NCBI GenBank assembly: GCA_001767195.1
Contig: MEKU01000080.1
Location: 20,566 to 67,084, forward strand
Direction of reading: 5' to 3'
Length of the DNA stretch: 46,519 nucleotides
From: Acidobacteria bacterium RIFCSPLOWO2_02_FULL_67_21
Lineage (GTDB): Bacteria; Acidobacteriota; Vicinamibacteria; Vicinamibacterales; UBA2999
Shown here: piece after piece, positions 7,079 to 36,256 of the stretch
How the letters are laid out: every line of letters starts with the position of its first letter
Numbering within the stretch: the first letter of the stretch is position 1
Translations under genes and position numbers: made by a program
Notes under the pieces: generated by a model
What the model was told of the DNA's origin: nothing
Seen by the model: the letters and a program-made list of their open reading frames with translations, nothing else
The model's database searches: none

Positions 7079-7402
7079 ATGATCAACGTGTCTCAGACGG
7101 CGGCGTCCAAGATCAGCGAGCTGCTTGGCGAAGAAGGCAAGGCGGGCAGCGGCCTGCGCGTGTTCGTGCAGGGCGGCGGCTGCTCGGGTTTTCAGTACGG
7201 GCTCATGATCGAGGAAAACGGCGGTGACGCCGATCAGGTGTTCGAGTCCAACGGTGTGAAGCTGTACGTCGACCCGGTCAGCATCAGCTACCTCAAGGGC
7301 GCGGAAGTCGACTTCGTGGAGACCGTGACCGGCGGCGGTTTCACCATTCGCAACCCCAACGCCGTGTCCACGTGCGGGTGCGGCCAGTCGTTCACCGTGT
7401 GA
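7079..7402 (+). CDS. erpA: A-type Fe-S cluster carrier (ErpA/IscA, HesB family)
   Basis: LRVFVQGGGCSGFQY...F.IRNPNA.STCGCGQSF; three conserved Cys. Confidence 0.92.
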   Translation: MINVSQTAASKISELLGEEGKAGSGLRVFVQGGGCSGFQYGLMIEENGGDADQVFESNGVKLYVDPVSISYLKGAEVDFVETVTGGGFTIRNPNAVSTCGCGQSFTV

Positions 7403-7403
7403 C

Positions 7404-8381
7404 GTGACGGCCCTTCCAGATCTGACCCGCCTCAAGCCCGAAGGCGGCAAGCGATCCAGCAAGCGGGAGCAGATCGTCAATGTCTTCCTCCGGCAGGAAG
7501 GGCATCTCAGCGCCGACGATCTCGTCGACCTGATCCGTCAGGAGGATCACCGGATCAGCCGCGCCACCGTTTACCGGACGCTCCAGTGGATGGTGGATGC
7601 TGGCATCGCGCGCAAGGTCGATTTTGGCGAGGGGCGGTTCCGGTTCGAGCATTCGTACCGGCAACCCCGCCACTTCCATCTTATCTGCAAGAGCTGTCAC
7701 CGATCGTTCGAGTTTCTCAGCTCGGACATCGAAGCGCTGGTCGAAGAAGTGGCGTCGGCGCGCAGCTTTGCGGCGTCGCAGAGCGTGGTCCAGATCTACG
7801 GCACGTGCGACGAGTGCCGGACGGGCCGGCAGCCGACACAGGCCGACGGCCACAAGGATCTGCTCTTCGCGCGCGACGCCCTGCGGATCGCGATTGCCAC
7901 CGAGCGCAGCGGGCTCGAGTTCTACACCCGCGCCGCCCGGCTGACCCGCGATCCCCGCGGGCGCAAGGTCTTCGACGACCTCGCGCTCGAGGAGAAGGAG
8001 CATCTCACCAAGCTGGAGGCGCGCTACAACGAGCTGCTGCAGCGCGATCCGCAGCTCGAGTCGCAGCCGACGTTCCTTTTCTTCAAAGGCGCCGCGAACG
8101 GCCTCTTCGCGGAAGGCGCCGACCGGCTGCTCAAGGGCGTCAACGATCAGCAGGCGCTGCTCATCGGCATCCGCTGCGAGCGCGGGTCGCACCAGTTCTT
8201 CAAGAAGTACGGCGAGCGTTTCGACGACTCAGAGGGAAAGCAGATCTTCCTGGAGTTCGCCGACGAGGAGCGCCAGCACCTCGAGCTCCTCATCCGGGAA
8301 TACCGTGCGCTCCTGAAGCGCCAGGGCCGCAGACGGCGGGCCGGCCGGCCGGGCTCCCCGGCGGCGCGCGCCGCCCGGTGA
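7404..8381 (+). CDS. Fur-family regulator fused to a C-terminal rubrerythrin/ferritin-like diiron domain
   Basis: N-terminus: HLSADD, ISRATVYRTL, HFHLICKSC, GTCDEC (Fur). C-terminus: AIATERSGLEFY...LALEEKEH and GIRCERGSHQFF...FADEERQH (two E...EExxH halves). Confidence 0.88.
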   Translation: MTALPDLTRLKPEGGKRSSKREQIVNVFLRQEGHLSADDLVDLIRQEDHRISRATVYRTLQWMVDAGIARKVDFGEGRFRFEHSYRQPRHFHLICKSCHRSFEFLSSDIEALVEEVASARSFAASQSVVQIYGTCDECRTGRQPTQADGHKDLLFARDALRIAIATERSGLEFYTRAARLTRDPRGRKVFDDLALEEKEHLTKLEARYNELLQRDPQLESQPTFLFFKGAANGLFAEGADRLLKGVNDQQALLIGIRCERGSHQFFKKYGERFDDSEGKQIFLEFADEERQHLELLIREYRALLKRQGRRRRAGRPGSPAARAAR

Positions 8382-8391
8382 TCCGCCGATT

Positions 8392-9228
8392 CTGATCGAT
8401 CTCCATCTGCATACGACGGCGTCCGACGGGCTGTGCTCGCCGCGCGAGCTCGTCGAGCGGGCGTCGGCCGCTGCCGTGACCGCCATGGCGGTCACCGACC
8501 ACGACACGACCGCGGCCGTCGACGAGGTGCGCCGTCTCGCGGCCAGCCGCGGTATCGAAGCGGTGCCGGGCATCGAGATCACCGCCATGGACGACGGCCG
8601 CGACGTGCACGTGCTCGGCTACTTCTTCGACCCGGCCCACGACGGCCTCCAGGCATTTCTCACCGAACAGCGCCGCGCCCGCCGCGCGCGGATCGAGGAG
8701 ATGATCAGGCGCCTCGCCGTGCTCGGCATGCCGATCGACGCTGAGGCACTCGCCGAGGTGGAGGCCGGCGGCGCGGCCTCCGGGCGCTCGATAGGGCGTC
8801 CGCTGATTGCGCGTGCGCTGGTGCGCGGGGGCCACGTTGCCACGACCGATGAGGCGTTCGATCGATGGCTCGAGCGCGGCCGCCCGGCGCACGTGCCTCG
8901 CGCCGGTGCTCCCCCGGAACACGTCATCGACGTCATTCATGCCGCAGGTGGTCTGGCCTCCCTGGCGCATCCCGGCCACGAAGAGGCGGCGCCGCGTATT
9001 CGCGCGCTTGCGGAGGCCGGTCTCGACGCCGTCGAGGTCTACCACCCGGACCACGATGCGGCTGCGGTCGCCGGGATCCTCGCGCTGGCGCGTCACCTGG
9101 GCCTCTGTGTGACCGGGGGATCCGATTTTCACGGCGATCCAGCGTATGGACTGGGGCCGGGAGTGATGGGGCTGCCGCCGCAGGAGTTCGAACGGCTCAA
9201 GTCCGCGTGGCAGCATGCACGCCGGTGA
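8392..9228 (+). CDS. PHP-domain metallophosphoesterase (probable CTG start)
   Basis: In frame upstream of the listed ORF: ctg-atc-gat-ctc-cat-ctg-cat = (M)IDLHLHTTASDG; then TDHDT, PGIEIT, HVLGY, LAHPG, GGSDFHG. Confidence 0.88.
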   Translation: MIDLHLHTTASDGLCSPRELVERASAAAVTAMAVTDHDTTAAVDEVRRLAASRGIEAVPGIEITAMDDGRDVHVLGYFFDPAHDGLQAFLTEQRRARRARIEEMIRRLAVLGMPIDAEALAEVEAGGAASGRSIGRPLIARALVRGGHVATTDEAFDRWLERGRPAHVPRAGAPPEHVIDVIHAAGGLASLAHPGHEEAAPRIRALAEAGLDAVEVYHPDHDAAAVAGILALARHLGLCVTGGSDFHGDPAYGLGPGVMGLPPQEFERLKSAWQHARR

Positions 9229-28713: not shown

Positions 28714-29817
28714 ATGTCCTCGCTCGATCGCGACGCGGTATTGAACGCCCTCAAGACGGTTGTCGATCCGGATCTTCGCCGCGACATCGTGTCGCTCGGC
28801 TTTGTGAAGAGCCTGGCGATTGACGGCGGCGGCCGCGTCTCATTCACGATCGAGCTCACCACTCCCGCGTGTCCGGTGAAGGATCAGCTGCGCGACCAGG
28901 CGGTCGCGGCCGTCCGGGCCCTGCCAGGGGTCAGCGATGTCGAGGTGCAGATGACGGCCAGCGTACGCTCCGTCTCGGCGCCCGAGACGGGACGGACGCC
29001 ACTGCCGGGCGTCAAGAACGTCATCGCCGTCGGCGCGGGAAAAGGCGGCGTCGGGAAGACCACGGTCGCGGTCAATCTCGCACTGGCGCTCGCGAAATGC
29101 GGCAGCCGCGTCGGGATTCTGGACGGCGACATGTACGGACCGAATGTGCCGCTCATGATGGGGCTGGAGACGCAGCAGCTCACGACCGATGGACAGCGGA
29201 TCGTGCCTGCCGAGAAGTACGGCGTGCAGGTGGTGTCCATCGGGTTCATGACCGGCGATGATGCCGCGGTGATCTGGCGCGGTCCAATGCTGCACCAGGC
29301 CATCCAGCAGTTCTTCCGGGAGGTGGCGTGGCACGACCTCGACTATCTGATTGTCGACATGCCGCCCGGAACCGGGGACGTCGCCCTGAGTCTGAGCCAG
29401 ACCGTGCCCGTGGCGGGGGCCGTCCTCGTGACCACGCCGCAGCAGGTCTCGCTGGCGGACACGAGGCGGGCCATCCGCATGTATCAGAAGCTCAACATCA
29501 AGCCGATCGGCGTCGTCGAGAACATGAGCTACTACGCCTGTCCGAACTGCCATCACGAATCCGACATCTTCGGATACGGCGGCGGCGAGTCCCTTGCGCA
29601 ATCGATGGAGGTCCCGTTTCTGGGCCGGCTGCCCGTGTACCAGCCGATCCGGGAGGGGAGCGACACCGGTGTGCCCCTGATTGTGAGCGAGCCAGGGTCA
29701 CCGGCCGGCCGGGCCTTTATGACTGTGGCGGAGCGGACGGCCGCGCAGCTCTCGATTGAGGCGCTCAAAGTGGCGGAAGCCAACAAGGGGAAAATCCCGC
29801 TCATTCCGGTTCGATAG
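28714..29817 (+). CDS. mrp: Mrp/ApbC (NBP35) Fe-S carrier ATPase with N-terminal DUF59
   Basis: DPDLRRDIVSLG, LTTPACP, GKGGVGKTT, VIWRGPM, DMPPGTGD, ENMSYYACPNC. Confidence 0.95.
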   Translation: MSSLDRDAVLNALKTVVDPDLRRDIVSLGFVKSLAIDGGGRVSFTIELTTPACPVKDQLRDQAVAAVRALPGVSDVEVQMTASVRSVSAPETGRTPLPGVKNVIAVGAGKGGVGKTTVAVNLALALAKCGSRVGILDGDMYGPNVPLMMGLETQQLTTDGQRIVPAEKYGVQVVSIGFMTGDDAAVIWRGPMLHQAIQQFFREVAWHDLDYLIVDMPPGTGDVALSLSQTVPVAGAVLVTTPQQVSLADTRRAIRMYQKLNIKPIGVVENMSYYACPNCHHESDIFGYGGGESLAQSMEVPFLGRLPVYQPIREGSDTGVPLIVSEPGSPAGRAFMTVAERTAAQLSIEALKVAEANKGKIPLIPVR

Positions 29818-29872: not shown

Positions 29873-29929
29873 TTGACAAACCCAAGAGGTCGGATATAGC
29901 CTGAGGCTGATATTAAGACTCAGTCTCAA
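29873..29929 (+). promoter_or_regulatory. Sigma70 promoter followed by a Fur-box-like operator
   Basis: TTGACA (29873) - N16 - TATAGC (29895); gatattaagactcagtctcaa (29909-29929) upstream of iron-uptake genes. Confidence 0.65.
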
Positions 29930-29954: not shown

Positions 29955-32393
29955 ATGGCGAAAACGCTTGTGGTGCTGCTGGTGGTGCTCGGGGCGGCAT
30001 GGCCCGCTGCCGCGCAGGGTGAGCCGACGATTCTGGGGCGGGTCGTATCGCCGGGGGGCGCTGCGGTCGCCGGCGCCGAGATCGTCCTGCGCTCCGCTCT
30101 GGGGGAAGAGACCGTCACAACGGCCGGCCCGGAAGGGCAGTTCGAGTTTCAGCGCGTCCCGGCCGGTGTGTACCGGCTGCTTGCCTCAGCGATCGGCATG
30201 TCCCCGATCGCGCAGCCGCTGACGGTCGCGGCGGGTCAGCCGCTGTTCGTCACGATCGAGCTGCCCGAGGTGGTGCGGGAGCGCGTCAACGTGGTGGGCC
30301 ACTCGTCGGCGGCCGGCCGTATTCCGGGTGCCGCGCGGATCATCGAGCCTGACGAGATGCAGAAGCTCCAGATCGCCACCGACGACGTCCATCAGATGCT
30401 GCGCCAGATCCCGGGGTTGAATATTCAGGAGGAGGAGGGCTACGGCCTGCGGCCCAACATCGGGATGCGCGGAACCGGCACCGACCGCAGCAGCAAGATC
30501 ACCCTGATGGAGGACGGCGTGCTCGTCGCGCCCGCGCCCTATTCGGCGCCCGCGGCGTACTACGCACCGGTGCCCGGCCGAATGGAATCCCTCGAGGTGC
30601 GCAAGGGATCGAGCCAGGTGAAGTACGGCCCGATTACCACCGGCGGCGTGCTGAATTACGTGTCGACGTCGATACCGTCCGCCTTCCGGGTCCGCGGCAA
30701 CGTGGCCACGGGCGCGGATCGCACCGGCAAGATTTCGGTCAACGTGGGCGACGAGTACCGGAACTTCGGCTGGCTCGTCGAAACCTTCCAGCTTCGCAAC
30801 GACGGGTTCAAGACGCTCGACGGCGGCGGCGACACCGGCACCGACCTGCAGGACTACATGGGGAAGCTGCGCTTCAATACGACGCCCTCATCCACGTTGT
30901 ATCAGGAAGTTGAGTTCAAGATCGGCCGCACCGAGCAGGTCGGCAACGAGACGTATCTCGGGCTGACCGACGAGGACTTTGGCCGCACGCCGCTGCGGCG
31001 CTATGCCGCTTCGCAGCACGACGTCATCAACTCGACTCACGAGCAATACCACGTGCGCCATCTGCTCGCGCGCCGCAACTGGGACGTGACGACGGTCGGC
31101 TACCGGAATGACTTCCAGCGTGCCTGGTACAAGTTGGAAAGCGTGCTCGGGTCTGGGCTGGGGGGTGTGCTGGCCGCGCCCGATCGCTTCCCGCAGCACC
31201 TGGCCGTCCTGAAAGGCGGAGACAGCGCGCCAAACGCGCTCGTCATCCGGAACAACAACCGCGCGTACTTCGGCGCCGGCGTGCAGTCAGTGCTCGGCGT
31301 CTCACTCTCCGGTCCGCGGGTGGACCACAAGGTGGAGGCTGGTCTCCGCTACCACCGCGACGAGGAAGACCGGTTCCAGCAGGATGACGCGTATCAGATG
31401 ACAGCGGGGCGCATGACCCGGACCCGTGCCGGCGCGCCGGGGAGCCAGACGAATCAGGTGGTGGGCGCCTCGGCGGTTGCCGTGTTCCTGTCCGACACGA
31501 TCACCTGGGGCAGCTGGTCGTTCGCGCCCGGTGTCCGCTACGAGACGATCGATTTCGAGCGGATCGACTACTCGCGCTCGGATCCCACCCGCACCGCCGG
31601 GTCTGCCGCCTTGGACACGTCGGTTGACGTCGTCGTCCCTGGCGTCGGCGTCACGTACGAGGTTCGTCCCGGGATGGTGGCGTTCGGTGGAGTGCACAGA
31701 GGCTTTGCTCCCCCGGGACCGGGGTTGGCGCCAGAGACGAACTCTGAAGAGAGCGTGAACTACGAGCTCGGCTCGCGGGTCGAGCGGGGCGCGCTCCGTG
31801 GAGAGCTGATCGGCTTTTTCAACGACTATTCGAACCTGTTGGGGCGGGACACGCTGTCGACGGGCGGCACGGGCGACGGAGACCTGTTCAACGGCGGCGA
31901 AGCGCTGACTGCCGGTCTCGAGGCGGCAGTCGATTGGAATCCGCTGGCCGGACGGCTCGGGGCCTTTGCACTGCCGGTGCGCCTCGCCTACACCTTTACC
32001 CGCGCCGAGTTCCGCAACGATTTCCAGAGCGCCTATGGACCATGGGGAACCGTGCGCGTGGGCGACGGTCTTCCGTATGTGCCGCAACACCAGCTGCACG
32101 CGAGCGTCGATCTCGATCGAGGCCGCTGGCGGGCCCGCCTGGACTCGACGTACCTGGGCCGGATGCGCACGCGCGCAGGCCAGGGCGCGCACGTCGCCAC
32201 GGAATCGACCGAGGCGTATCTGGTCGTCGGCCTGTCCGGCGAGTATGCGCTCGGCGGCGGCGCGGGCCTCTTTGCGAGCGTCCAGAACGTCACCGACAAC
32301 AGCTACATCGTGTCCCGGCATCCCGCGGGGGTTCGTCCCGGCCTGCCGCGGCTGTTTCTCGCCGGCCTGAAGTTCGATGTCGGACGGCGGTAA
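29955..32393 (+). CDS. TonB-dependent receptor, FecA-like, with N-terminal carboxypeptidase-regulatory-like domain
   Basis: GGAGG RBS then ATG 29955; signal peptide; plug EEEGYGLRPNIGMRG, KITLMEDG, EVRKG..QVKYGP; C-terminal RPGLPR. Confidence 0.92.
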   Translation: MAKTLVVLLVVLGAAWPAAAQGEPTILGRVVSPGGAAVAGAEIVLRSALGEETVTTAGPEGQFEFQRVPAGVYRLLASAIGMSPIAQPLTVAAGQPLFVTIELPEVVRERVNVVGHSSAAGRIPGAARIIEPDEMQKLQIATDDVHQMLRQIPGLNIQEEEGYGLRPNIGMRGTGTDRSSKITLMEDGVLVAPAPYSAPAAYYAPVPGRMESLEVRKGSSQVKYGPITTGGVLNYVSTSIPSAFRVRGNVATGADRTGKISVNVGDEYRNFGWLVETFQLRNDGFKTLDGGGDTGTDLQDYMGKLRFNTTPSSTLYQEVEFKIGRTEQVGNETYLGLTDEDFGRTPLRRYAASQHDVINSTHEQYHVRHLLARRNWDVTTVGYRNDFQRAWYKLESVLGSGLGGVLAAPDRFPQHLAVLKGGDSAPNALVIRNNNRAYFGAGVQSVLGVSLSGPRVDHKVEAGLRYHRDEEDRFQQDDAYQMTAGRMTRTRAGAPGSQTNQVVGASAVAVFLSDTITWGSWSFAPGVRYETIDFERIDYSRSDPTRTAGSAALDTSVDVVVPGVGVTYEVRPGMVAFGGVHRGFAPPGPGLAPETNSEESVNYELGSRVERGALRGELIGFFNDYSNLLGRDTLSTGGTGDGDLFNGGEALTAGLEAAVDWNPLAGRLGAFALPVRLAYTFTRAEFRNDFQSAYGPWGTVRVGDGLPYVPQHQLHASVDLDRGRWRARLDSTYLGRMRTRAGQGAHVATESTEAYLVVGLSGEYALGGGAGLFASVQNVTDNSYIVSRHPAGVRPGLPRLFLAGLKFDVGRR

Positions 32394-32421
32394 CGGATCG
32401 ACTATTTAGGGAGAGCCTGGA

Positions 32422-33534
32422 GTGATGACGTCGCTCGTATCGGTCGTGGATGCTCCGCGTGGAATGCCGGTGAGCCCGGTGGCCATGCCGATGGTGGCGG
32501 TCGACCGGGTGACGGTGGCGTTCGGCGACCTGCTGGCGCTCGACGGCGTGTCGCTCGAGGTGGAAACCGGCGAGATCGTGTCGCTCGTGGGGCCTTCGGG
32601 ATCGGGAAAGTCGACGCTGCTGCGGGTGATTGCCGGAATCACGCGCCCGACCCGGGGGCGCGTGCGCCTCGCGGGGAGCGAAGTCGCGGGTCCGGCCACG
32701 TTTGTCGAGCCAGAACACCGCCGGGTCGGCCTGGTCTTTCAGGATTACGCGCTCTTCCCGCATCTCACGATCGCCGCCAACGTGGCGTTCGGTCTCAAGG
32801 GGCTGGACCGGCGCGTCGTGCGGCGCACCGTAGGCGAACTGCTCGAGCGGTTCGGCCTCGCGCGCTATGCGGAGAGCTACCCGCACATGCTGTCGGGCGG
32901 CGAGCGGCAGCGAGTGGCGCTCGCACGAGCGTTGGCGCCGCAGCCGCGCGTGATCCTCATGGACGAACCGTTTTCCGGCCTCGACAGCCGGCTTCGCGAT
33001 CGCGTCCGCCAGGAGACGTTGGACGTCCTGCGCGAGACGCACACGACGACCCTCGTCGTGACACACGATCCAAGCGAGGCGATGCGTGCCGCGGATCGTG
33101 TGGCCCTGCTCCACGACGGACGGCTGATCCAGTACGGTCCGGTCGAAGAGGTCTACGCGCATCCGGCGACGGCGTTTGCGGCGCGGTTCCTGAGCGAGGT
33201 CAACGAGCTTTCAGGTACCTGCTGCTGCGGCCGTGTGGACACTGCGCTTGGATCGTTTGCGGCCCCCCACCTTCCCGAGGCGTCGCCAGTACGGGTGTGC
33301 ATCAGACCCCATCACGTGCGGGTGACCGATCGGCCGACCGGTATCCCGGCGATGGTGGTCTCCTCGGAGTTTCTTGGGGAGAGCGATCGGATGATGCTCG
33401 AGGTGCCGGGCCTGGATCGGCCTCTGTGCCTCAGGACCTTCGGTCGCGCGCACATGGCGCCCGGGCACCGTGTGTTTCTGGATGTCGATCCCGCCGGCGT
33501 TGTCGTCGTACCCGACGATGACCGGCCGGCATAG
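32422..33534 (+). CDS. Fe3+ ABC transporter ATP-binding protein (FbpC-like)
   Basis: GPSGSGKS, FQDYALFPHL, LSGGERQR, LMDEPF, VTHD; TOBE-like tail. Confidence 0.9.
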   Translation: MMTSLVSVVDAPRGMPVSPVAMPMVAVDRVTVAFGDLLALDGVSLEVETGEIVSLVGPSGSGKSTLLRVIAGITRPTRGRVRLAGSEVAGPATFVEPEHRRVGLVFQDYALFPHLTIAANVAFGLKGLDRRVVRRTVGELLERFGLARYAESYPHMLSGGERQRVALARALAPQPRVILMDEPFSGLDSRLRDRVRQETLDVLRETHTTTLVVTHDPSEAMRAADRVALLHDGRLIQYGPVEEVYAHPATAFAARFLSEVNELSGTCCCGRVDTALGSFAAPHLPEASPVRVCIRPHHVRVTDRPTGIPAMVVSSEFLGESDRMMLEVPGLDRPLCLRTFGRAHMAPGHRVFLDVDPAGVVVVPDDDRPA

Positions 33535-33558
33535 ACGGTTTTCTACCGAGGCCTCGTT

Positions 33559-34587
33559 ATGACACTTTCACTTGTGCGGTTCTTGAAGGCGGCCCTGCCG
33601 GGCGCCGCCGTGCTTCTGTGTGCCGCGACGGCGTCGGCACAGGAGGTCAATCTCTACACCACCCGTGAGCCCGGCCTCATCCAGCCGCTGATGGACGCCT
33701 TTACGAAGGCGACGGGCATCAAGGTGAACAGCATCTTCGTGCGCGACGGACTCGCCGAGCGCGTCGCGGCGGAAGGGACGCGGTCCCCGGCCGACGTCCT
33801 GATGGACGTCGACATCGGCGCGCTGATCACGCTGGTGGATCGCGGGCGGACGCAGCCGGTCCGGTCGAGCGTGCTCGAGGCGGCGGTGCCGGCGAACCTT
33901 CGCGGGAGCGACGGGTCGTGGTTCGCGCTGTCGCTGCGCGCCCGCGTGCTGTACGTGCAGAAAGACCTGAGCCTGAAGTCGTTCACCTACGAGCAGCTCG
34001 CCGATCCGCAGTGGAAGGGCAAGATTTGCACACGCGCTGGCCAGCATGCCTACACCACCGCGCTGATTGCCGCGTACATCGCCCATTACGGCGAAGCGCG
34101 CGCGGAGGCATGGCTGAGAGGGCTCAAGAGCGGCCTGGCGCGGGCCGCGGCGGGGGGCGATCGTGACGGCGCCCGCGACATCATGGGCGGCATCTGCGAT
34201 CTGGCCCTCGGCAATTCCTACTATGTCGGCCTGATGCGGAGCGGCGCCGGCGGCCCGGATCAAGAGAAGTGGGGGTCGGCGATCCGCATCATTCTGCCCA
34301 CGTTTGAGAACGGCGGGACGCACGTGAACGTGTCGGGCGCCGCAATCGCGAAGAACTCGCCGAACAGGGCGAACGCTCTCCGGTTCCTCGAGTTCCTGGT
34401 GTCCGACCAGGCGCAGAAGATGTATGCCGAGGCGAACTTCGAGTACCCGGTGAAGGCCGGCGTTGCCGCGCATCCGATTATTGCCGCCCTTGGACCGCTG
34501 AAGGTTGATGGGCTCCCGCTGGTCGAGATTGCGAAACACCGCGCGACCGCCAGCAAGCTCGTGGACAAGGTCGGATACGACCGCTGA
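33559..34587 (+). CDS. Fe3+ ABC transporter substrate-binding protein (FutA/FbpA-like)
   Basis: Signal peptide; EVNLY, SPADVL, GGDRD, GNSYY, HVNVSG, NFEYPV. Confidence 0.9.
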   Translation: MTLSLVRFLKAALPGAAVLLCAATASAQEVNLYTTREPGLIQPLMDAFTKATGIKVNSIFVRDGLAERVAAEGTRSPADVLMDVDIGALITLVDRGRTQPVRSSVLEAAVPANLRGSDGSWFALSLRARVLYVQKDLSLKSFTYEQLADPQWKGKICTRAGQHAYTTALIAAYIAHYGEARAEAWLRGLKSGLARAAAGGDRDGARDIMGGICDLALGNSYYVGLMRSGAGGPDQEKWGSAIRIILPTFENGGTHVNVSGAAIAKNSPNRANALRFLEFLVSDQAQKMYAEANFEYPVKAGVAAHPIIAALGPLKVDGLPLVEIAKHRATASKLVDKVGYDR

Positions 34588-34597
34588 TCCCCGTGTG

Positions 34598-36256
34598 ATG
34601 CTCCGGAGGCCGGGCCGTGGAAGCCCGTGGCTCGCCGCCTCCGGCATCGTCGCTCTCCTCGTTATCGCCCCCATCGCGGCTCTCGCGCTCACGGCATCGC
34701 GGGGGTCGGCCGATCTCTGGCAGCACCTGATCGCCTATGTCCTGCCGGTGGCCGTGCGCGACACCTTCGTCCTGCTCCTCGGCGTCGGGCTGCTGACGGC
34801 GGCTGTCGGCACGACGATGGCCTGGCTGGTCACCGCGTACGATTTTCCCGGGCGCCGCGTCATCGACTGGGCGCTGTTGCTGCCGCTGGCGGTGCCGACC
34901 TACGTGGTCGCGTACGCCTATCTCGATATCCTGCATCCCGTCGGCCCGGTGCAGACCGCGTTGCGCGCGCTGCTCGGCATCGACGACCCGCGCGATTTCC
35001 GGCTGCCGGATATCCGATCCATGGCCGGCTGCGTCGTGCTGCTCGGGTTCGTGCTGTATCCGTATGTCTATCTGACGACCCGAGCCATGTTTCTGATGCA
35101 GACGGCGAATCTGGTTGAGGTGGCGCGCACGCTGGGCATCAGCCGGCGCGGGGTGTTTCTGCGTGTCGCGTTCCCGCTGGCGAGACCCGCGGTGGCCGTG
35201 GGCCTCAGTCTTGTCCTGCTCGAGACGGTCAACGACATCGGCGCGTCGGAATTCCTCGGCATCCGCACGTTGACCGTGTCCATCTATGCGACCTGGATCA
35301 CGCGGTCGGATCTGGCGGGCGCCGCGCAGATGGCGCTGGCCATGCTCGCTGTGGCGCTTGGAGTCGTGCTTCTGGAGCGGTGGGCCCGGCGGCAGCGCCA
35401 GTATGCCAACGATGCGCAGCATGCCCGCCCGCTCGAACCACAGCGGCTTGCGGGCTGGCGCGCGGGCGCGGCGCTGGTCGCCGCCATCACCCCGGTCGCG
35501 ATCGGATTTGCGATTCCTGCGGCGTATCTGGTCGACGAGGCGCTCGCCCGCGTGCGTTTCGCAGGGGTGTCTCGAGTCATCCTGTCGGAGACAAGCGCGA
35601 CCATTGGGCTTTCACTCGTGGCGACGGCGCTGACCGTGCTGGCGGGCCTCGGCGTCGCGTACGCCGTACGGGCGACGGGCCGCGCGGCCGCAGGCGTGCT
35701 CGCGCGCATCGCATCGCTCGGCTATGCCATCCCGGGCACGGTGCTGGCGATCGGGCTGCTTCCGGTCGTCACCGGCATCGAGGCCTTCGTCGATAGCGGT
35801 GCTCGCGCGGTACTTGGGGTGTCCACCGGCCTGCTGCTGCTCGGCAGCGGCGCCGCACTCATCTATGCGTACGTCGTCAGATTCCTGGCGCTCGCCGTTG
35901 GCGGCGTCGAGGCCGGCCTCAGCCGCGTCCCGGCATCCCTGGACGAGGCGGCTCGCACGTTGGGGGAGTCGGCAGGCGGCCGCCTGCGGCGTATCCACCT
36001 GCCGCTCGTGCGCCCGGCTCTCGCGACGGCAGCGCTGCTGGTGTTTGTCGACTGCATGAAGGAGCTGCCGGCGACGCTGCTCCTCCGGCCGCTCGGCCTC
36101 GAGACGCTGGCGACACACTTGTACGGGGAAGCGGTGCGCGGCACGTACGAGGACGCTGCGATTGCCGCACTGTTGATTGTGGCGGCTGGGCTCGTTCCAG
36201 TGGTCATCCTCGCGCGTGTCAGTCGCGCGCGCATCCACGCAGGTCCCCTCTTGTAG
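34598..36256 (+). CDS. Fe3+ ABC transporter permease (FbpB-like)
   Basis: LLLPLAVPTYVVAYAY, two EAA loops (EVARTLG, EAARTLG), KELPATLLLRP. Confidence 0.92.
   Translation: MLRRPGRGSPWLAASGIVALLVIAPIAALALTASRGSADLWQHLIAYVLPVAVRDTFVLLLGVGLLTAAVGTTMAWLVTAYDFPGRRVIDWALLLPLAVPTYVVAYAYLDILHPVGPVQTALRALLGIDDPRDFRLPDIRSMAGCVVLLGFVLYPYVYLTTRAMFLMQTANLVEVARTLGISRRGVFLRVAFPLARPAVAVGLSLVLLETVNDIGASEFLGIRTLTVSIYATWITRSDLAGAAQMALAMLAVALGVVLLERWARRQRQYANDAQHARPLEPQRLAGWRAGAALVAAITPVAIGFAIPAAYLVDEALARVRFAGVSRVILSETSATIGLSLVATALTVLAGLGVAYAVRATGRAAAGVLARIASLGYAIPGTVLAIGLLPVVTGIEAFVDSGARAVLGVSTGLLLLGSGAALIYAYVVRFLALAVGGVEAGLSRVPASLDEAARTLGESAGGRLRRIHLPLVRPALATAALLVFVDCMKELPATLLLRPLGLETLATHLYGEAVRGTYEDAAIAALLIVAAGLVPVVILARVSRARIHAGPLL

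Follow-up and report, generated by a model that had tools for sequence, protein, structure and literature searches.

The 46,519-nt stretch of Acidobacteria bacterium RIFCSPLOWO2_02_FULL_67_21 analysed here (hereafter the window, to which all coordinates refer unless a genome and contig are named) carries a gene that joins a ferric uptake regulator (Fur) to a ferritin-like four-helix bundle. Pfam assigns both FUR (PF01475) and Rubrerythrin (PF02915) to its product. From the conserved metal ligands of both parts and a palindrome that recurs upstream of iron-transport genes, we lean towards reading the fusion as the repressor of the Fur type on which this Acidobacteriota lineage mainly relies for its response to iron, not an accessory paralogue, with the bundle adding a second input. 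The parts of this reading differ in strength: a classical Fur role with the operator TGAGACTnAGTCTCA appears probable, the bundle likewise probably binds iron, and modulation of DNA binding by the bundle is a possibility that we hold with some reserve.

According to the open reading frame (ORF) listing and translation, the fusion gene (7404..8381, +) is a single uninterrupted ORF of 325 residues with a GTG start and a TGA stop at 8379-8381. It begins 1 nt after the TGA (7400-7402) of erpA (7079..7402, +), which encodes a 107-residue A-type Fe-S cluster insertion protein (NCBIfam NF010147, 131.7 bits against a cut-off of 117; Pfam Fe-S_biosyn). A preliminary description of this DNA had reported the 325-residue ORF 1 nt behind an erpA-like stop, and in it a Fur domain with two CxxC pairs and an RHFH motif followed by a bundle keeping both E...EExxH halves; the ORF listing, the translation and NF010147 bear out the former, and Pfam, the sequence and the AlphaFold2 model the latter. 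The fusion is also a real gene and not the assembly artefact for which that description had allowed. Contigs of three runs from three studies extend across the boundary between the domains, with 0-1 letters that differ (X2 record 4, 7568-8181; X4 record 11, 7288-8045; X8 record 26, 7709-8181), relatives encode the fusion as one ORF of 306-334 residues in 32/32 fetched loci, and all 103 unique genome-derived fusion copies are single ORFs.

The fusion is conserved among soil Acidobacteriota. In a survey of 301 sampled genomes, full-length matches occur in 23 of the 24 genomes of the same family or order (67-89% identity) and in at least 23 further Acidobacteriota genomes of other families (33-42% identity); the latter count leaves out the unpublished genome G049, which has full-length matches, and the unpublished genomes G024 and G152 enter the overall tallies only. 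Two genomes labelled 'same class' gave Fur-only matches. In a second survey, 185,579 species genomes were scanned for patterns of the distant-clade alignment; 111 relatives were confirmed, and the titles of the 80 records retained read Acidobacteriota, Terriglobia, Aminicenantes and Versatilivorator, plus six 'uncultured Acidimicrobiia'. The divergent representative P0202 and the members of the P0150 cluster are labelled Acidobacteria. A word-index search returned 5416 proteins at E<=1e-3 among 8000 scored, and the best 120 of these 5416 are all 316-333 residues long and all combine PF01475 with PF02915.

Moreover, the fusion is the sole FUR-family match in 11 of the 16 genomes checked (G073, G258, G260, G112, G190, G309, G304, G307, G086, G198 and G316). 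Among the others, G312 has three such matches, G218, G228 and the source assembly (G000, the window's own genome, 99.5% complete) have two each, and G178 has none.

Two other architectures came up in the searches. P0212, P0267 and P0269 are of similar length and are tandem Fur-Fur fusions without a ferritin part. An Atlas cluster of 91 Bacillota members of ~313 residues combines FUR, Rubrerythrin and RUBY_RBDX (score 0.82) and is taken as a lead only.

Two conserved modules in one chain

The Fur module spans residues 14-140 (7443..7823, +) and comprises a winged-helix DNA-binding domain and a dimerisation domain, as judged from Pfam, Foldseek and ligand conservation. The Pfam match covers residues 14-132 and profile positions 3-121 of 121, with 90.4 bits (cut-off 23.1), and the motifs C95xxC98, C135xxC138 and R89-H90-F91-H92 can be read directly from the sequence. 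Section 6 of PMC11353095 gives site S1 of Fur as two CxxC pairs, S2 as a His of the DNA-binding domain followed by Glu, two His and Glu, and the accessory site S3 as His, Asp, Glu and His. Each of the S1 ligands C95, C98, C135 and C138 is kept in 102-103 of the 103 copies, and all five S2 ligands (H34, E82, H90, H92 and E103) are kept in 102/103. The S3 positions of the window protein are R89, F91, E110 and Q126, and S3 is not kept in the order: two of its four positions, 89 and 91, are substituted there, and both are His in most other copies.

The NCBIfam models place the fusion closest to ferric-uptake Fur (70.1, 68.3 and 65.9 bits), followed by PerR (61.3) and Zur (60.3). The best of them, NF051892, reaches 70.1 bits against a cut-off of 220, and no Fur, PerR or Zur model reaches its cut-off; by these scores the fusion is a divergent Fur and not an equivalog of the modelled Furs. 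The best Foldseek matches to the Fur part are metal- and DNA-bound Fur structures, for example 4rb2_D (E 8e-9, TMt 0.74). Existing annotation of the fusion proteins reads 'Fur family' or 'transcriptional repressor' only.

A linker of residues 141-152 (7824..7859, +; pLDDT 71 for the block 141-150) leads to the four-helix bundle, residues 153-312 (7860..8339, +), which is assigned from Pfam Rubrerythrin (two stretches, 44.1 bits, cut-off 22.8) and from fold matches. The bundle contains the diiron motifs E167...E196-E197-x-x-H200 and E259...E288-E289-x-x-H292. All six ligands (E167, E197, H200, E259, E289 and H292) are kept in 98 of 103 copies. The second-shell residue Y174, seven residues after E167, is kept in 101/103, and we take it to be the equivalent of the ferroxidase-centre Tyr. 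Five further residues (R157, D158, F173, P222 and F266) are invariant in a 40-sequence alignment. Beyond the bundle lies a basic C-terminal tail, RRRRAGRPGSPAARAAR (8340..8378, +), which is K/R-rich throughout the order and variable in sequence: of the final 25 residues, 9-10 are K/R in 12/12 proteins of the order. The tail is absent from the distant clade.

In the 103-copy comparison, the identities within the order are 0.85 (Fur module), 0.80 (bundle), 0.39 (linker) and 0.33 (tail). Judged from these identities and from the retention of the S2 (102/103) and diiron (98/103) ligands, both modules are under purifying selection.

The fold of the bundle is clear, whereas its subfamily is not. With VIA-align, residues 148-312 match 8w1d_A (Z 16.1, rmsd 2.5, 136 aligned), 2oh3_A (Z 15.9) and 2vzb_A (Z 15.5) best, with a large number of chains from Dps, bacterioferritin and ferritin close behind at Z 12-15. 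Dps-like proteins, DPSL, thioferritin and bacterioferritin are thus among its structural neighbours. In the Atlas, the bundle comes closest to clusters of standalone proteins 154-170 residues long, and the best NCBIfam match is NF009413 (E 2e-16), the ferritin domain of a multidomain redox protein. No bfr or ferritin family of NCBIfam or Pfam matches the fusion, and the true bfr genes of its own genome score 166-177 bits.

The term 'rubrerythrin-type' used in the preliminary description holds at the level of the Pfam family and not beyond it, since the bundle has no rubredoxin and carries the symmetric set, E and ExxH twice, of single-domain ferritin-like proteins. After residue 312 there is only the Cys-free basic tail, and no rubredoxin-family Pfam match was found. 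Rubrerythrins sensu stricto also have an extra Glu ligand (ExxE) in the third helix; helix C of the bundle reads C-E259-R-G-S-H, with no Glu at +3.

In the AlphaFold2 monomer (pLDDT 87.8, pTM 0.79), a Fur fold comes first and then long helices, at 151-180, 184-214, 248-271 and 277-314. A homodimer is also predicted, with a score of 0.59 against 0.00 for the best control, contact agreement of at least 86% and partner pLDDT of at least 72; among proteins with solved structures, 20 of the 30 that are pairs of one chain attain this mark, as does 1 of the 23 that are single chains. The modelled interface involves Fur residues 91-139 only, and the good score is probably owed to similarity with Fur dimers of known structure.

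No PDB sequence spans both modules (31 matched, each in one module only), and literature searches, supplements not covered, returned no paper describing a Fur/ferritin-like fusion. The accessible portions of PMC5114695, on rubrerythrin evolution, and of PMC10817205 make no mention of one, and those of PMC11353095 and PMC7536154 do not describe this architecture either. The statement of the preliminary description that no characterised protein has this architecture thus agrees with the PDB and literature searches, and the fusion is apparently unstudied. New here are the counts of genomes in which the fusion is the only Fur, the restriction of erpA synteny to the order, the ligand losses within a single clade and the candidate operator with its putative iron regulon.

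Candidate operator and putative iron regulon

A recurring palindrome, first seen upstream of feoB in relatives, was refined to the 7-1-7 inverted repeat TGAGACTnAGTCTCA. Its half-site, TGAGACT, departs from the classical TGATAAT by two symmetric changes, and 10 of the 14 positions that the repeat specifies agree with the 7-1-7 core of the E. coli Fur box. A second, partial copy at an offset of 6 bp is common, in agreement with the '7-1-7 offset by 6' model of Fur (E. coli box and model as set out in the available text of PMC7536154 and PMC11353095).

In the window, the candidate operator TAAGACTCAGTCTCA (29914..29928, no strand assigned) has one mismatch to TGAGACTnAGTCTCA and lies 41 nt before the ATG of a TonB-dependent receptor gene, with a TTGACA -35-like hexamer upstream of it at 29873-29878. 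The putative target operon (29955..36256, +), delimited from Pfam matches, would comprise on the same strand the receptor (29955-32393), an ABC ATPase with TOBE_2 (32422-33534), a solute-binding protein (33559-34587) and a double permease (34505-36256), and these genes look like an FbpABC-like Fe3+ uptake system. An ApbC/Mrp-type Fe-S carrier gene (28714-29817) adjoins this operon; counting erpA as well, the window contains many genes related to iron and Fe-S clusters.

The palindrome recurs in related genomes. At <=2 mismatches it precedes TonB-receptor homologues in 5 of the 6 loci having upstream DNA (the window and four relatives), with a perfect copy before the homologue in G312, and it precedes feoAB in 4 of 20 loci, two more having it with 4 mismatches. 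It also stands before bfr in three of nine loci, that of the own genome included. A blind scan of five complete same-order genomes found 7 sites at <=1 mismatch and none for the reversed control. Six of the seven lie just upstream of iron-transport genes, namely feoA-feoB (three times), FTR1, a TonB receptor and a CbiX+Plug protein.

A number of observations weigh against the fusion acting as the iron repressor at this site. The own genome alone contains 6 sites at <=2 mismatches, whereas the reversed pattern has 0 there and block shuffles give 3-6; because this count is no higher than in the shuffles, the weight of the operator rests on position and on recurrence across genomes. The palindrome is lacking from 14 of the 20 feoB loci, nine of them of the other feoB type, and from six of the nine bfr loci. 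In G178, a genome of the order (99% complete, 30 contigs), it precedes feoAB, yet no FUR-family match is found there; since this genome also lacks an erpA orthologue (best match 38% identity), its fusion locus may simply be unassembled. Furthermore, a DtxR-family regulator is present in 6/6 genomes tested, and the palindrome is a conceivable binding site for it. In G307, G073 and G304 (G307:C3:726337-728558, G073:C1:658539-660671 and G304:C1:180527-183991), genes of this family flank another type of feoB that has no palindrome, and this arrangement suggests that two feo systems are split between DtxR-type and Fur-type regulators. Finally, five distant-clade genomes gave 1 operator site against 2 for the control pattern. 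The single site lies at the promoter of what, read by eye, is a Phd/YefM-like antitoxin gene, and was dismissed; no Fur-like palindrome was found in the upstream regions of distant-clade feoB genes.

The recognition helix differs between the clades, reading TVFRTLKAL in the distant clade and TVYRTLQWM in the order. Upstream of feoA in the distant-clade loci L181 and L182 (G260 and G088) there are repeated GGCGAC-N6-GTCGCC-like palindromes, which may be a different operator.

In the own genome, two overlapping operator-like repeats, TTGAGAATGATTCTGAGACTGAATCTCC, occur at G000:C79:61211-61237 (L154 3712-3738), followed by a strong hairpin and upstream of a 409-residue ORF without a Pfam family. 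A scan with the E. coli Fur box gave as its best site the AT-rich G000:C5:122227, which was rejected: it lies between a leuA-like (homocitrate/isopropylmalate-synthase-like) gene and a divergent LysR regulator, and is probably a LysR site. Two other Fur-box-like sites, C56:53533 and C79:82151, were rejected on position, as they lie between convergent genes or ~550 bp from bfr.

The neighbours of the candidate operator also bear on the type of regulator. That the fusion is a PerR-, Zur- or Mur-type protein instead of an iron Fur might be argued from the absence of any NCBIfam match above an equivalog cut-off, with PerR and Zur scoring just below Fur, and from the Bacillota cluster in which FUR is joined to a rubrerythrin complete with rubredoxin domain; moreover, PerR classically targets rubrerythrin genes. 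We consider this highly improbable. The genes next to the candidate operator serve iron transport and storage, not peroxide or zinc metabolism, and S2 position 103 is Glu in 102 of 103 copies, where PerR has Asp at the last S2 position. In addition, the own genome has a separate PerR-like Fur adjoining katG. This second Fur, of 162 residues with the motif HHHLICRICG, has PerR-type models as its best NCBIfam matches and lies directly upstream of katG (1296.6 bits) in a furA-katG-like pair (G000:C11, L122 3510-6191, minus strand); it is probably a peroxide-responsive paralogue.

Possible roles of the ferritin-like bundle

If the fusion is the iron repressor, as we favour, its action may be pictured as follows. 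The Cys4 zinc site would hold the Fur dimer together, and Fe2+ (or Mn2+) at the His/Glu site S2 would close it. The closed dimer would then bind the 15-bp 7-1-7 inverted repeat at the promoters of feoAB, FTR1, TonB-dependent receptors, the Fbp-like ABC system and bfr. A flexible linker would tether to this dimer the four-helix bundle with its complete ferroxidase-type diiron site (E, ExxH, E, ExxH and Tyr). By binding two irons, the bundle could give the repressor a second iron- or oxidant-dependent input, either by capturing or oxidising Fe2+ near S2 or by changing shape with its iron load or redox state, and repression would then depend on both iron supply and oxidative state.

A bolder proposal, which goes back to the preliminary description, makes the fusion a one-component allosteric sensor: the primary signal would come from the diiron site, whose load or redox state would turn the Fur module on or off by way of a defined domain interface. 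The retention of the diiron ligands (98/103) and of the Tyr (101/103), the invariance of R157, D158, F173, P222 and F266, and a bundle nearly as conserved as the Fur module are in line with it, and a pTM of 0.79 for the two-module chain hints at a defined orientation, although no inter-domain error map stands behind this hint. However, the classical S2 site is fully retained (102/103), so that a second primary sensor is not required, and we give the proposal tentative standing only. Three further observations tell against it and also against our own assignment of a role to the bundle. The linker varies in both sequence and length. The homodimer model contains no confident contact between the bundle and another chain, which is not evidence that there is no contact. 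Five copies of one clade (L032, L033, L035, L036 and L116) have lost diiron ligands and kept the domain; therefore, the bundle can persist without a full metal site.

The same five copies, with their degenerate ligands, raise the alternative that the bundle is a structural scaffold, which would drive higher-order assembly (for example a dimer of dimers on operator arrays) or the docking of a partner, any metal being incidental. The conserved motif P222-x-F-L of the B-C loop, which we presume to correspond to the loop forming the two-fold interface in ferritins, is consistent with such a role, as is the top structural match, 8w1d_A (Z 16.1), a dimeric Dps-like protein. We nevertheless regard a scaffold as unlikely, since all six ligands are retained in 98 of 103 copies, even between pairs with no more than 30-40% overall identity, which would be difficult to account for if no metal were bound, and the predicted homodimer has no bundle-bundle interface.

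A ferroxidase-type ligand set with its Tyr is equally what would be expected of a tethered enzyme. In that case a ferroxidase or peroxidase activity of the bundle would shield the Fe2+-loaded repressor and its DNA from Fenton chemistry in the manner of Dps, with regulation unchanged. The structural neighbours of the bundle (Dps-like proteins, DPSL, thioferritin and bacterioferritin) fit this picture, and the best NCBIfam match, NF009413, indicates that this type of domain has been reused as a redox module. On the other hand, there is neither a rubredoxin electron donor nor a conserved reductase neighbour, with gene contexts that vary outside the order, and one site per repressor provides little catalytic capacity; a guarding enzyme seems to us a poor prospect.

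Returning to the fusion as an iron repressor with a second input, its strongest form would have the diiron centre as a true sensory cofactor. The protein would then weigh iron supply and oxidative state together, as a one-component integrator that addresses iron-uptake promoters through a re-tuned Fur box, and in Vicinamibacteria-like lineages ErpA might supply or repair iron or an Fe-S cluster at Cys95/Cys98. We offer this form speculatively, as it is rather doubtful.

Gene neighbourhood, known systems and significance

In the order, erpA lies directly 5' of the fusion in 12/12 loci, and a PHP-family phosphoesterase gene follows 3' in 10/12; in the window this third gene of the erpA-fur-PHP unit occupies 8392..9228 (+). 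In 20/20 loci from other families, neither erpA nor the PHP gene was found within 4 kb of the fusion. Because the linkage holds in all 12 loci inside the order and in none of the 20 in other families, erpA linkage is an order-specific lineage feature and not part of the fusion's design. Outside the order the fusion stands among variable housekeeping genes, and no conserved neighbour was found there, the largest neighbour cluster comprising 12 of 80 loci (Macro domain, M24 peptidase, RecJ and others). The preliminary description had proposed that domain architecture, taxonomic spread and synteny with erpA be checked; the architecture recurs inside and outside the order, as the genome counts given above attest, and the erpA link proved confined to the order.

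The tie to Fe-S delivery that had been drawn from the position behind erpA is accordingly weakened, and at <=3 mismatches no operator occurs in the 12 erpA-fur loci (47.5 kb). The erpA upstream regions in the order share a TATAAT-like -10 element only, and no autoregulation footprint was found, as the erpA upstream regions and 93 fusion upstream regions of other clades share only -35/-10-like elements. Fur has been reported to bind [2Fe-2S] through Cys93 and Cys96 (in the available text of PMC11353095), and these residues of the reviewed Fur correspond to C95 and C98 of the fusion. By analogy, an operon with an A-type Fe-S carrier together with C95/C98 is suggestive of an Fe-S link, which we put forward as speculation.

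The product of the PHP gene has partial NCBIfam matches to 3',5'-nucleoside bisphosphate phosphatase and RNase RNM. Its conserved N-terminus, LIDLHLHTT, is encoded 5' of every in-frame ATG, GTG and TTG. A CTG at 8392, 10 nt after the fusion stop, aligns with GTG, ATG or TTG starts in 7 of 10 loci including the window; the position is CTG in L016 and GCG in L008. The gene would thus probably use a CTG start or reinitiation.

The fusion resembles several known systems in part. Canonical Fur proteins (M. gryphiswaldense 4rb1/4rb2, P. aeruginosa 1mzb/6h1c, E. coli 8j6w and C. jejuni 4ets) likewise have the FUR domain, the S1 Cys4 site and the S2 His/Glu site, dimerise via the C-terminal Fur subdomain and act at a 7-1-7 inverted repeat, here a candidate, before iron-uptake genes. 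They lack the ~185 extra residues of linker, diiron bundle and basic tail, and the fusion differs from them further in its altered S3 in the order and in a half-site reading TGAGACT and not TGATAAT (E. coli box, available text of PMC7536154). The single-domain rubrerythrin-like proteins of COG1633 (2oh3, 1vjx and 2fzf; 'erythrin') share with the bundle the four-helix fold, the E, ExxH, E, ExxH pattern and PF02915, whereas the bundle here is fused to a DNA-binding regulator; unlike true rubrerythrin, the fusion is without a rubredoxin domain.

Diiron domains also occur as modules on iron-handling partners in MbfA, an erythrin-VIT1 iron exporter, and in the ferritin-like cargo of encapsulins. 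There, however, the partner is a membrane exporter or an encapsulin shell and not a transcription factor, and the fusion scores only 33 bits (cut-off 450) and 35.2 bits (cut-off 90) against the NCBIfam models for MbfA and EncB_fam, respectively. A Fur-family regulator is linked or fused to a diiron protein in PerR-rubrerythrin gene pairs and in the Bacillota FUR+Rubrerythrin+RUBY_RBDX cluster. The latter carries a rubredoxin domain that the fusion does not have; because this domain is that of true rubrerythrin and the phylum is another one, the Bacillota proteins are probably an independent fusion. Dps places a ferritin-like fold on DNA, as the fusion does, and Dps and Dps-like chains match the bundle at Z 13-16, but Dps is a dodecamer with non-specific DNA binding and inter-subunit ferroxidase sites, whereas in the fusion the site lies within one bundle and DNA specificity would come from Fur. 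A possible functional analogy lies with the hemerythrin domain of FBXL5 and with bacterial hemerythrin-coupled signalling proteins, in which a diiron site, by its load or oxidation state, controls the output of the module joined to it. These have a hemerythrin fold, not a ferritin-like one, and their output is not Fur DNA binding.

Fur, the textbook regulator of iron in bacteria, is described with two domains and a length of ~140-160 residues. In many genomes of a major and poorly cultivated soil phylum, the sole Fur-family protein carries a conserved diiron domain, and because of this domain iron sensing there may depart from the textbook and may couple to oxygen or peroxide. The candidate operator offers a handle for reconstructing iron regulons in Acidobacteriota metagenomes, and together with the predicted target genes it makes the Fur role of the fusion testable at the bench on a defined DNA site. 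Should the diiron centre indeed be a sensory cofactor, a whole soil phylum would have a Fur that senses, in one polypeptide, both Fe2+ at S2 and the load of a diiron site or its oxidation driven by O2 or H2O2.

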